Part shown: positions 9,813-12,437 of the stretch, in pieces
Layout of the letters: every line of letters begins with the position of its first letter
How positions within the stretch are numbered: position 1 is the first letter of the stretch
From: a virus
Taxonomy: Duplodnaviria; Heunggongvirae; Uroviricota; Caudoviricetes
Direction: 5' to 3' (one strand)
DNA: 13,999 nt
IMG/VR virus record: IMGVR_UViG_2563366967_000002
Coordinates: 1 to 13,999 of that record
Program-made: the position numbers and the translations under genes
Notes under the pieces: generated by a model
The model's input: only the letters and a program-made list of their open reading frames with translations
Databases searched by the model: none
What the model was told of the DNA's origin: nothing

Positions 9813-11297
9813 TTATTGTATTTCTGCTTCAGAATTTCCTGGGCAGTATATATTTTCTATTTTTTGTGGAGTGATCAGGTGATGTACAACTGCTTTATCT
9901 ACACATAAATTAACTCCGGTGAGAGCTAATGTATGCCCATCACCATTTATTGTTAGTAACGGGCTGGAAAATTTCTCTGCCATCTTACGGGCATTAATCC
10001 AGGGCGTTGTTGGGTCGTATTTGTGTGCTACAAACAGTAAACCAGAGGGCAGAACAGTATTTTTCAGGCGAGTTTTGTTCAGGTCGCTATGTATTGGCCA
10101 TAATTCACAAAAATCAGGTGAATCGGAACGTCCATTGTCAAAGTTAATAGCCGGGAAGGCATTCGCAAGAGCCTCTTTTCGGAATTTTCGCTCTTCTGGT
10201 GTTAATTGCTCATCCCCCTGATCTACACAAAGGATTACCCCCGAAGCATCACTTGACTCTTCTGAGGCTATCGGAGCACTGAGCGCAGTTTCAATTTCAT
10301 TACTGACAATCCCCTGAGAGAACTGGCGTATGGCAGTTGCAAGGGTTGGCCATGATGAACGCCATAGCAGAAGGTCTGTTGTTAATGATATGAGTTCATC
10401 TGAAGATATATTTTCTCCCTTACTGTCTAATAAAGGTTTGTGATGTAATTTTGATAATAGCTCATGGAACTGAGTTATTGCCTTATCTCTGTCTGAAGAA
10501 AGCGGGCAACTTTTTGTACGCGCACACCAGGATGCAAAGCGATCAAACGTTTCCTGATAACTCTGTGCCTGTTTGAGTTGCCATGTGAAGTTGTCCTCTA
10601 GGTCATCGATATCGACGACTCCATCAAGAACGATAGATCTTACGTTGTAGGGAAAACGTTCTGCATATAAGGCTGCAATTTGAGTTCCATACGAATACGC
10701 CACGGCTGTCAGTTGTTTATCCCCCAAGGCTTGCCTAATACGATCAATATCGTATACAGCCTCGTTAGAGCCGATATGGCGAATGACTTCGGCTCCGGTA
10801 TTATGGATACAGGCATTAATTTTATTTAATACTTGTTGCTTTTCGGTTATGTTTTCCTGAGTCTCTGTATCTGATTGCCGGCAGTTTATTGTCGGAGTGG
10901 ACTGTCCGACGCCTCGAGGATCAAATCCAATAATATCCCATGACTCACGAAGATTTGTGACTGGCCAGTCAAAGTTAATATAAGGATTTATGCCTGGCAA
11001 CCCGGGGCCACCACTTATTATCAGGATACTTCCTTTATGCTTGCTTTTTGCCGGCAATTTTGTCAACGCTAGTTTGACTTGTGATTTTTTTTCATAAGAA
11101 GCATCTCCGCCTGTGTCTGTATATTTTAATGGAACAGACAAATAACCACATAGTAAGTCAGGAGACGGTTTTTCCTCACCAAACCAGTGGTTGAATTGAC
11201 TGGCCATACAGGATTGCCACTGTATCTGCTGGGCAGATACGGTTACTGGTAGAAGTAACGTTAAAACAACTTTGAAATGAGTAATTATTTTTCGCAT
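9813..11297 (-). CDS. Secreted alpha/beta-hydrolase serine peptidase, S33-like (prolyl/tripeptidyl aminopeptidase, TAP-type)
   Basis: 494 aa with an N-terminal signal peptide (…LLLPVTVSA/QQ), oxyanion-region motif GFDPRGVGQS and nucleophile elbow AYSYGT. Size and motif layout fit TAP-like alpha/beta hydrolases; family assigned from motifs only. Confidence 0.6.
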   Translation of the reverse strand: MRKIITHFKVVLTLLLPVTVSAQQIQWQSCMASQFNHWFGEEKPSPDLLCGYLSVPLKYTDTGGDASYEKKSQVKLALTKLPAKSKHKGSILIISGGPGLPGINPYINFDWPVTNLRESWDIIGFDPRGVGQSTPTINCRQSDTETQENITEKQQVLNKINACIHNTGAEVIRHIGSNEAVYDIDRIRQALGDKQLTAVAYSYGTQIAALYAERFPYNVRSIVLDGVVDIDDLEDNFTWQLKQAQSYQETFDRFASWCARTKSCPLSSDRDKAITQFHELLSKLHHKPLLDSKGENISSDELISLTTDLLLWRSSWPTLATAIRQFSQGIVSNEIETALSAPIASEESSDASGVILCVDQGDEQLTPEERKFRKEALANAFPAINFDNGRSDSPDFCELWPIHSDLNKTRLKNTVLPSGLLFVAHKYDPTTPWINARKMAEKFSSPLLTINGDGHTLALTGVNLCVDKAVVHHLITPQKIENIYCPGNSEAEIQ

Positions 11298-11436
11298 TGT
11301 GTCTCTGAATATCGGAATAAAGATAAAATTTGAATATATTGAGGTCTTGTGTTGCGGTAAGAGATTACACGTTATGACATAGGTTAAATGCTTACAAAAT
11401 TAGTGGATATTGTCTACTTGTAACTGTAAACAAATT

Positions 11437-11463
11437 CCCCGGGGTTATACAATACCACCGGGG
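11437..11463 (-). terminator. Probable terminator hairpin downstream of ompT
   Basis: GC stem ccccgg / ccgggg about 20 nt after the ompT stop, followed on the minus strand by aatttgttt. Confidence 0.4.
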
Positions 11464-11483
11464 AGAAAATCTGGTTAACTTCG

Positions 11484-12437
11484 TTAAAAGGTGTACTTAA
11501 GACCAGCAGTAGTGATGAAGTTATAGTTTTCTATGCCTGCACCATTTTTGCTGTAGTCTGAAGTGTTATCATTGTGATCATAAAGTGAAGTATTACCTTT
11601 TTTATTCGTAACCCGATTCCATGCGCCTTCAACATAAACTTTTGCGTTAGGTGTTACGTAATAACCTGCATTGACTGCAACAGAATAGTAATTTTGGTCT
11701 TTGACTTTACTGCGATAAGTGATTCTTTTTCCTGGGTCATAGTGCTCATCGTTATCAGATGCTTCCACCCAGCCGCTGTATTTAAATGTGCCACCTAGCT
11801 CAAAATCTTCATAACGATAACTTCCAGTCAAGCCAATGTAGGGCATTTTAAAACGTTGTTTGTAGCCGATTGCTCTTTCTCCATTCGGGAAGGAGCCGAT
11901 ATCATCTCTGAATCCCTCCTCAGAACTGTAGATATAGGAACCACCTCTGGCTGTAAAGCTATAACGGCTTTCCTGATATCCGGCCATGAGTCCCAGGCGG
12001 TAATTGGGTTCGTTGAGGAGCCAGCCTTTGATATTCAGATCAAATTCGTTGGCATAATTGAGTTGTGTATCAGGGTGCCTACTTTCATCTGTCCAGGTTC
12101 CGGGGTTACTGGAATCCATCCAGTCCTGATCGACCATATTGCCACCCCGGCTGCCGAGAGTAGTCCAGCCCGCAGCCCCAATAGATATCTGGGGCATCAA
12201 ATCCCAATTAATTGCACCTTTAATAATTGCAGCGTTATTGAATTTCCAGTCGAGTTGACTGACTTTTCGGCCTCCTTCTTCAGCTAGATAAACGCGCTCT
12301 TTTGTTTTTCCGCTCAGAGTTCCAAGACTAATGTCCGCATTTATGTTGTCAGGAGTAAACGATATAGTCTCGGTAGAAGCAAAAGAGCTGATCGCAATAG
12401 GGGTTGTCAGGACTATTCCCAGAAGTTTCGCCCGCAT
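11484..12437 (-). CDS. ompT: Outer-membrane protease OmpT (omptin family)
   Basis: 317 aa. MRAKLLGIVLTTPIAISSFASTE… through …ITTAGLKYTF is essentially the recalled E. coli OmpT sequence; SD ggaga upstream. Confidence 0.95.
   Translation of the reverse strand: MRAKLLGIVLTTPIAISSFASTETISFTPDNINADISLGTLSGKTKERVYLAEEGGRKVSQLDWKFNNAAIIKGAINWDLMPQISIGAAGWTTLGSRGGNMVDQDWMDSSNPGTWTDESRHPDTQLNYANEFDLNIKGWLLNEPNYRLGLMAGYQESRYSFTARGGSYIYSSEEGFRDDIGSFPNGERAIGYKQRFKMPYIGLTGSYRYEDFELGGTFKYSGWVEASDNDEHYDPGKRITYRSKVKDQNYYSVAVNAGYYVTPNAKVYVEGAWNRVTNKKGNTSLYDHNDNTSDYSKNGAGIENYNFITTAGLKYTF

Follow-up and report, generated by a model that had tools for sequence, protein, structure and literature searches.

A probable mobile cassette pairing ompT with a gene for a predicted exported, Hip1-like hydrolase in Escherichia coli prophages and F-type plasmids

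We analysed a 13,999-nucleotide stretch of viral DNA (hereafter the window; positions 1 to 13,999 of IMG/VR record IMGVR_UViG_2563366967_000002), which is the tail end of a lambdoid prophage in Escherichia coli. The closest complete genome was that of E. coli 04-00955, with 99.7% identity across all 13999 bases. Near the right end of the window lies ompT, encoding an omptin that matched the Pfam Omptin profile with 433.9 bits and was 99% identical to K-12 OmpT, and 186 bp downstream of it, on the same strand, a gene for an alpha/beta hydrolase (Table 1). An initial annotation, made from the sequence alone, had described the latter as a 494-residue protein with the motifs GFDPRGVGQS and AYSYGT, encoded adjoining ompT on ompT's strand; the open reading frame (ORF) was indeed intact from its ATG start, the motifs were located at residues 124–133 and 200–205, and the ORF coordinates agreed with the described arrangement. 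We interpret the two genes as a mobile cassette carrying an exported, Hip1-like hydrolase that probably acts as a peptidase, a reading that we favour with moderate confidence.

The hydrolase matched Abhydrolase_1 (PF00561; 115.9 bits cf. a cut-off of 25.8) and the TAP-like C-terminal domain Abhydrolase_4 (PF08386; 53.9 bits cf. 21), and its closest solved relatives were the Hip1/CaeA entries (E = 5.5e-51 across residues 21–475; ~27% identity). An AlphaFold model, built with 18 homologues, had a mean predicted local distance difference test score (pLDDT) of 85.9 and a predicted template modelling (TM) score of 0.87, was confident except in the signal peptide and at the final residues, and showed the order of strands and helices expected for an alpha/beta hydrolase. 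When the model was compared with the PDB using Foldseek, Hip1 structures ranked top (TM score 0.76–0.81), followed by TnmK1/K2, with prolyl aminopeptidases and dipeptidyl peptidases among the looser matches; 575 matches reached E ≤ 0.001, and those listed were alpha/beta hydrolases. The catalytic triad of Hip1 is S228/D463/H490, and five disulfides have been predicted in that protein (PMC4022732). Ser202, Asp428 and His455 of the window protein aligned with this triad and Thr431 aligned with Hip1 Thr466, and these four residues, a GGPG motif and five cysteine pairs (the window protein has exactly 10 cysteines) were invariant among 18 aligned sequences down to 29% identity. The Ser-Asp-His triad and S33-type serine hydrolase assignment proposed initially, for which a triad missing from the predicted structure would have been damaging, were thus upheld by profiles, homology, alignment and model, with export read from the signal-peptide-like N-terminus. 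No NCBIfam peptidase model reached its cut-off on the hydrolase, and prolyl aminopeptidase models matched weakly and far below theirs (TIGR01249: 35.8 bits cf. 259.75, over residues 167–263); placement in MEROPS family S33 would be based on the Hip1 homology together with these weak matches.

Hip1 (Rv2224c, CaeA) is 30–38% identical to the Streptomyces tripeptidyl peptidases (PMC4022732), and all of these enzymes are therefore placed in one lineage, of which the hydrolase is, on sequence and model, a predicted new proteobacterial member. It resembles Hip1 in its full-length homology, equivalent triad, GGPG motif, threonine after the catalytic aspartate, five cysteine pairs and (predicted) export, and the Streptomyces enzymes in its TAP-like domain. 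However, Hip1 is an envelope-associated, chromosomally encoded actinobacterial protein, whereas the window protein has a plain Sec signal peptide without a lipobox, a Gram-negative host and a gene carried as phage or plasmid cargo; unlike Streptomyces SlpD and SlpE, it is not a lipoprotein. The cleavage of GroEL2 and the immune modulation known from Hip1 should not be assumed for the window protein.

By hydropathy and inspection, the N-terminus of the hydrolase consists of a charged head (MRKIITHFK), an 11-residue hydrophobic core (VVLTLLLPVTV) and the residues V-S-A before Gln23, the first of two glutamines; residues 1–19 had pLDDT values below 50. Some phage annotations and PHROG 20134 use Met31 as an alternative start, but we consider the long ORF to be the real one because W27 and C30 are conserved in the family and the Hip1 alignment begins at residue 21. 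We rejected a lipoprotein, as there is no lipobox and the homologue on the F plasmid has Leu at position -1 of the only candidate cysteine; a soluble periplasmic or released enzyme is expected instead. The mature protein is predicted to have 472 residues, a mass of 52.6 kDa and a pI of 5.4.

Among 5426 complete E. coli genomes, 1254 contained the hydrolase gene and 1230 contained at least 80% of it; in 1188 of these 1230 (and of the 5426) it was part of a block with ompT and its flanks. The cassette was also found in 11 sequenced temperate phages that covered 100% of positions 9729–12555 at ≥ 99% identity, while two related phages carried ompT only. The gene order in phage 2G7b was tail fibre, tfa, methyltransferase, tfa fragments, hydrolase, ompT and int; the cassette thus occupies the b region immediately ahead of int, a position at which one would expect the attachment site. 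In IMG/VR, an omptin gene lay directly upstream of the hydrolase gene in 19 of 19 informative E. coli-type contigs. One viral contig (L110) was considered as an exception without ompT and rejected, as it terminates within an insertion sequence (IS) that is inserted 81 bp upstream of the start codon of the hydrolase gene; this IS, with its transposase gene (L110 1–786), splits the hydrolase gene from ompT. The P0018 contigs begin ~200 bp upstream of the hydrolase gene and are uninformative on the neighbour. In E. coli O157:H7 Sakai, the equivalent gene ECs1662 ("hydrolase") lies beside ECs1663 (ompT) at the right end of the lambda-like prophage Sp8, which shares the cassette at 99% DNA identity as well as the upstream catalase gene, two DUF892 genes, methyltransferase gene and tfa fragment. 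Sp8 differs in having ISEc8 between the tfa fragment and the hydrolase gene and in its chromosomal site, whereas the relatives of the window have the prophage in tandem with a DLP12-like remnant near ybcH-nfrA. A block of ompP and the hydrolase gene was present in 156 records of F-type plasmids.

Relative to the pair in the window (both proteins 100%), the omptin and the hydrolase were 91.5% and 94.9% identical, respectively, in an IS-flanked copy on a ColV-type plasmid (which shares positions 9729–12555 at 91.6% DNA identity), 79.4% and 81.3% in plasmid-like metagenome contigs, and 70.8% and 76.1% in the ompP pair of the F plasmid. A further hydrolase variant (78% identical) also had an omptin upstream, across a 92-bp spacer. 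Between cassette variants, the ratio of nonsynonymous to synonymous substitution rates (dN/dS) was 0.11–0.16 for the hydrolase and 0.07–0.16 for the omptin. Hence the two proteins are under purifying selection, and the genes have been co-inherited as one unit, diverging in parallel, in prophages, in free phages and on IncF plasmids. The proposal that the hydrolase gene is a pseudogene or a chance ORF was rejected by dN/dS and profile scores; it is a real, intact and widespread gene that is annotated yet uncharacterised. Linkage to omptin genes, as anticipated initially, recurred in the genomes, free phages, F plasmids with ompP and other diverged pairs, and this repeated linkage and phage and plasmid carriage are unlike a common chromosomal gene that is never found with ompT.

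The F plasmid pair has the same gene order and strand as the window pair and retains the hairpin after the omptin gene, but it occupies a plasmid site next to int and RepFIB, has a 92-nt spacer and encodes a different signal peptide. This IncF slot, beside a tyrosine recombinase gene and RepFIB (L101 5001–9890 and L103 4001–8037), holds varied gene sets: ompP and the hydrolase gene on F, and arlC, an SDR gene (HlyF/ArlB-type) and mig-14 on ColV-type plasmids. The latter set, arlABC/PI-6 of ColV-type and adherent-invasive E. coli (AIEC) plasmids, likewise has an omptin gene followed by same-strand envelope or peptide-resistance genes in the slot by int and RepFIB; however, the partners of arlC (SDR/HlyF-type ArlB and Mig-14-type ArlA) are unrelated to the hydrolase. 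Neither an SDR nor a Mig-14 gene was found in the window, nor the hydrolase gene in the arlC context. ArlB, considered as an equivalent serine protease, was rejected as such, being an SDR/HlyF-type protein.

In K-12, the corresponding gene order is ybcY, tfaX, appY (plus strand) and ompT (minus strand). By blastn, the window was homologous to K-12 over positions 8552–9553 and 11434–12906; homology halts at 9553 and resumes at 11434, and the hydrolase segment (9554–11433) therefore fills the place of the segment with appY, which in the K-12 prophage DLP12 encodes an AraC-type regulator on the opposite strand. The initial annotation had recognised this slot and its TfaX-like left flank, which proved to be a Caudo_TAP fragment. 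The direction of change that it implied was, in contrast, reversed by the breakpoints, the divergence of the pairs and parsimony, which suggest that the omptin–hydrolase pair is ancestral. K-12 OmpT is 99% identical to that of the window, yet hydrolase-bearing pairs reach down to 71% omptin identity; thus, the pair predates the split of OmpT and OmpP and loss of the hydrolase gene in K-12 was recent, and the arrangement with appY would be a later replacement of the hydrolase half. A further, hydrolase-less ybcY-ompT locus, reported as the ompT context of CFT073-type strains (Desloges et al.), was found as a second copy in strains S88 and 04-00955, where it matched window positions 8552–9350 and 11327–12906. 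This locus retains 157 bp (11327–11483) of spacer sequence that lies inside the cassette in the copies on plasmids, which is the signature of a deletion of 9351–11326 rather than of an insertion elsewhere; from the sequence, it looks like the product of a later deletion. Beyond the right end of the window, S88 and 04-00955 continue from the integrase remnant into a second tfa fragment, ybcY, a second ompT and ybcH-nfrA (second-ompT stretches at L001 14621–17511 and L003 18920–21812), so that these genomes contain two tandem prophage ends and two near-identical ompT genes each.

A sigma-70-like promoter match was found upstream of ompT, and a scan of the spacer revealed no sigma-70 consensus match between ompT and the hydrolase gene. 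The hairpin just past the ompT stop codon was kept in all four diverged cassettes when their intergenic regions were aligned, and probably acts between the two genes to attenuate or partly terminate transcription; the remainder of the spacer is absent from the 92-nt spacer of the F plasmid. The "own strong terminator" initially proposed for the hydrolase gene was confirmed as a stable, perfect hairpin, but its U-run begins ~9 nt beyond the stem and does not adjoin it, which makes it terminator-like, not canonical. In Sakai, transcripts of both ECs1662 and ompT drop more than 4-fold on entry into stationary phase and belong to one expression cluster (PMC2241611). The initial annotation had also noted an AT-richness relative to the phage structural genes, and the region indeed had a G+C content of 0.35–0.44 over positions 9500–11750 cf. 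0.49–0.64 in the tail genes. The cassette thus has the features of a moron: it lies in the non-essential region between tfa and int, is carried by free phages, has a distinct G+C content and is present or absent among related phages. The promoter-like site upstream of ompT, the hairpins after both genes and the transcripts detected on Sakai arrays may point to expression from the lysogen. It shares with the lambda morons lom and bor a late or b-region location as lambdoid cargo, a composition AT-richer than the backbone and hairpins of its own, and differs from them in consisting of two linked genes rather than one.

Table 1. Features of the window. Positions are counted from the first nucleotide of the window; dG, folding free energy.
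Feature	Position	Strand	Basis or remark
gpJ, C-terminal part	25-2256	+	
lom	2324-2923	+	
Tail fibre gene, then two small ORFs	2982-5051	+	
Stress-gene cluster	5888-8101	-	
ybcY-like gene, class I S-adenosylmethionine (SAM) methyltransferase	8599-9267	-	Conserved left neighbour
tfaX-like tail-fibre-assembly fragment	9324-9629	+	Left flank of the slot; Caudo_TAP profile; K-12 ybcY-tfaX homology up to 9553
Whole ompT + hydrolase cassette (~2.8 kb)	9729-12555	-	blastn span with the ColV-type plasmid copy
Perfect 14-bp hairpin, 20 nt past the hydrolase stop	9757-9792	-	Marks cassette end; dG -24.3 kcal/mol, z -6.1
Hydrolase gene (494 aa)	9813-11297	-	Equivalent to ECs1662
His455 codon (GDGHT)	9933-9935	-	Aligned with Hip1 His490
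Asp428 codon (YDPTTP)	10014-10016	-	Aligned with Hip1 Asp463
Ser202 codon, nucleophile (A-Y-S-Y-G)	10692-10694	-	Aligned with Hip1 Ser228
Predicted Sec signal peptide, codons 1-22, MRKIITHFKVVLTLLLPVTVSA	11232-11297	-	Cleavage expected before QQ; inspection, hydropathy
Rest of spacer upstream of the hydrolase gene	11298-11430	-	Conserved between the prophage cassette and two plasmid cassettes
G+C-rich hairpin just past the ompT stop, then AAUUUGUUU	11431-11473	-	dG -19.5 kcal/mol, z -3.2; K-12 homology stops just beyond, at 11434
ompT, omptin outer-membrane protease (317 aa)	11484-12437	-	First cassette gene; Pfam Omptin
Sigma-70-like promoter match, TTGACT-16-AAAAAT	12477-12504	-	Upstream of ompT; consensus match only
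Truncated phage integrase gene	12912-13649	-	Phage_integrase profile; annotated as frameshifted/partial

Most related genomes covered just ~70–75% of the window. The side tail fibre gene in the window is unlike the versions in S88 and Sakai, and the C-terminus of its product had a weak match, below the cut-off, to Laminin_G_3 (lectin/glucanase-like); such differences are typical of tail-fibre mosaicism. The stress-gene cluster consists of a KGG/YciG-like gene (7919–8101), two DUF892 (YciE/YciF-like) genes (7340–7846 and 6797–7303) and a manganese catalase gene (5888–6778), which correspond to ECs1652–ECs1655 in Sp8; we take the cluster to resemble the yciGFE-katN operon of Salmonella. The ~500 bp that separate the yciG-like gene from the methyltransferase gene (8102–8598) contained no ORF of 60 or more residues, had a G+C content of ~33% (two 500-bp profile windows, 8001–8750) and may be the regulatory region of the cluster.

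We propose that the cassette is two-gene cargo of an Sp8-like lambdoid prophage, lying between the tail-fibre genes and the integrase gene in a b region that is not essential to the phage. Its second gene would encode the precursor of a Sec-exported, disulfide-rich serine hydrolase of the lineage that comprises Hip1 and the Streptomyces tripeptidyl peptidases (TAP-like, MEROPS S33), with at least some of its transcripts starting at the ompT promoter and reading through the conserved hairpin. After removal of the signal peptide, the mature enzyme would fold in the periplasm with five disulfides, and might be released further. By analogy with Hip1, it would act as a peptidase. Its likeliest role is the degradation of peptides in the envelope of the lysogen, where it may complement OmpT without being required by it. 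Hip1 is a serine protease that also hydrolyses p-nitrophenyl butyrate, frees a tripeptide from the N-terminus and cuts GroEL2 after Arg12 (PMC4022732), and it strongly prefers Lys at P2 (PMC13041806).

Several observations weigh against this interpretation or limit its reach. The nucleophile elbow of the hydrolase is A-Y-S-Y-G cf. G-Y-S-Y-G in Hip1, with the first Gly of the G-x-S-x-G motif replaced by Ala; Hip1 itself cleaves esters as well as peptides, and one automated annotation calls the gene product a "lactone hydrolase"; and the export, cleavage site and disulfides of the hydrolase are predictions read from its sequence. The stable hairpin with a U-rich tail after ompT means that the two genes may be transcribed separately, and the Sakai expression cluster is very large and growth-related, which makes it weak evidence of co-regulation. 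The linkage is also restricted. In a scan of genome contigs, 79 of 80 loci were actinobacterial and one was from Pseudomonas; proteobacterial contexts were surveyed through contigs that encode homologues. No omptin gene was found within 4–6 kb of homologues with ≤ 54% identity in any of the contexts surveyed (Salmonella and Serratia plasmids, Budvicia, Providencia, Serratia marcescens, Pseudomonas, Chromobacterium and 80 actinobacterial loci). Among plasmid records, 1383 contained an omptin gene and 285 a hydrolase homologue, and the plasmids encoding IcsP, Pla, Kop and Cpa were absent from the hydrolase matches; arlC and most chromosomal ompT genes also lack the hydrolase gene, arlC being followed by SDR and Mig-14 genes and another omptin gene by macAB-tolC. 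Conserved adjacency among closely related mobile elements can, moreover, reflect common descent. The coupling belongs to a single clade of Escherichia cassettes and does not extend to either family as a whole.

Distant homologues were found in other settings. In Serratia fonticola and two viral contigs, a homologue with 42–44% identity lies at a prophage end, directly after a gene for an Ail/Lom-like outer-membrane protein (L107 3185–5476, L108, L130 and L131). A chromosomal homologue in S. marcescens (45% identity; its cluster holds 837 sequences) is closely followed by an SBP_bac_5 gene on the same strand (L096 5001–8356). The SBP_bac_5 family of Pfam includes OppA/DppA-type peptide-binding proteins, and this neighbour hints at a role in peptide metabolism.

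Three rival readings bear on different questions, and each is compatible with the description of the cassette and the hydrolase given above. The enzyme might be an independent lysogenic-conversion factor with its own target (an envelope protein, cf. Hip1 and GroEL2, or nutrient peptides) that was captured once beside ompT and then co-inherited; we regard this as possible, if tentative. The omptin-free mobile settings (IS-flanked copies on Serratia and Salmonella plasmids, and the prophage end after an Ail/Lom-like protein), the hairpin terminator after ompT and the presence of unrelated cargo, the yciGFE-katN-like operon, in the same prophage are consistent with such independence, as is a reported association with Shiga toxin-producing E. 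coli (STEC) if it is a marker of phage carriage (PMC12945212). However, the pair has been kept to ~71% omptin and 76% hydrolase identity across phage and plasmid backbones, longer than is usual for neighbouring cargo, and no Escherichia cassette variant was seen with the hydrolase beside another gene, save for the one IS insertion. That long retention fits a coupled two-step module, an idea raised in the initial annotation. In this reading, cationic host peptides, protamine-like peptides or colicins would be cut at the cell surface by OmpT or OmpP, and the periplasmic peptidase would destroy the fragments that get through, the pair being more effective than either protein alone. Order and strand are the same in five or more diverged pairs, which lie on three kinds of replicon with wholly different flanks, both genes are under purifying selection, and the spacer of 92–188 nt contains the conserved hairpin and no consensus promoter. 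The joint fall of transcripts in Sakai (PMC2241611) points the same way, the Lys preference of Hip1 at P2 (PMC13041806) would suit cationic peptides, and other omptin genes adjoin peptide-resistance genes (arlC with hlyF-type SDR and mig-14, another with macAB-tolC), as the S. marcescens homologue adjoins its OppA/DppA-type gene. A two-step proteolysis role would be plausible, but OmpT works without the hydrolase in K-12, in CFT073-type strains and in about three quarters of genomes, the hydrolase gene is easily lost by deletion or replacement, distant homologues lack the omptin linkage, and a shared neighbourhood in related phages and plasmids may be a matter of inheritance and not of selection. 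On balance, we consider such a module doubtful; its broader form, a co-evolving envelope module of outer-membrane endoprotease and periplasmic peptidase spread by Sp8-like phages and F-type plasmids for the stepwise destruction of cationic host peptides or colicins, seems to us unlikely.

The remaining alternative concerns the chemistry. Hip1 was first described as carboxylesterase A and hydrolyses p-nitrophenyl butyrate (PMC4022732), the next-best structural relatives TnmK1/K2 are non-peptidases, one annotation pipeline offers the label "putative lactone hydrolase" and, as noted, NCBIfam peptidase models stay below their cut-offs; the enzyme could therefore be an esterase, lipase or lactonase that acts on lipids, acyl esters or lactones of the envelope or environment. 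We judge this quite improbable, in that the characterised members of the lineage (Hip1 and Streptomyces tripeptidyl peptidases A, B and C) are peptidases, the TAP-like C-terminal domain and GGPG motif are common to S33 peptidases, and the looser structural matches are peptidases as well. The reading as a mobile cassette with an exported, probably peptidolytic hydrolase remains the one we prefer.

The initial annotation had supposed that this pairing was undescribed. The gene itself had already been annotated, as ECs1662 in Sp8 and in PHROG 20134, whereas no experimental work on the hydrolase was found in the literature, and the literature retrieved contained no mention of the Hip1 homology, the ompP-side paralogue on F or the way in which the pairs have diverged in parallel. 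Desloges et al. described the ompT contexts envY, appY, ybcY and ymcE, with the hydrolase unmentioned; no literature mention of Z1930 was found, and a mention of ECs1662 (PMC4606577) was uninformative. A 2026 in-silico study reported a 472-residue alpha/beta hydrolase as a STEC marker, present in 81.6% of STEC cf. 15.8% of non-STEC genomes, with a STRING link to OmpT (PMC12945212). This protein (WP_249926694.1) is probably the product of the window gene, given that its length of 472 residues, fold, prevalence pattern and OmpT link fit, although the epitope peptides given in the paper are not exact matches to the window protein and the computed masses differ (52.6 cf. 52.19 kDa). The "YlcE" of that study is K-12 tfaX, and hence the STRING link may reflect neighbourhood only.

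OmpT, OmpP and ArlC have been treated as single genes in work on peptide resistance, virulence typing and degradation in expression strains. Our results indicate that OmpT and OmpP were ancestrally paired with a conserved, intact and selected partner, a predicted-exported relative of Hip1, which is a virulence protease and drug target of Mycobacterium tuberculosis. About 22% of the complete E. coli genomes carry the partner, O157:H7 and ST95-type extraintestinal pathogenic E. coli (ExPEC) among them, as do free temperate phages and the F plasmid. If the partner aids peptide resistance or host interaction, the phenotypes published for ompT and ompP may have to be reconsidered, because strains differ in their carriage of the partner, and its reported value as a STEC marker would gain a biological basis. 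If it makes no such contribution, the cassette would be a clean example of a two-gene cargo unit that moves between phage and plasmid backbones. Should the envelope-module reading be true, E. coli would possess an overlooked counterpart of the tuberculosis virulence protease, even on F and in O157:H7.

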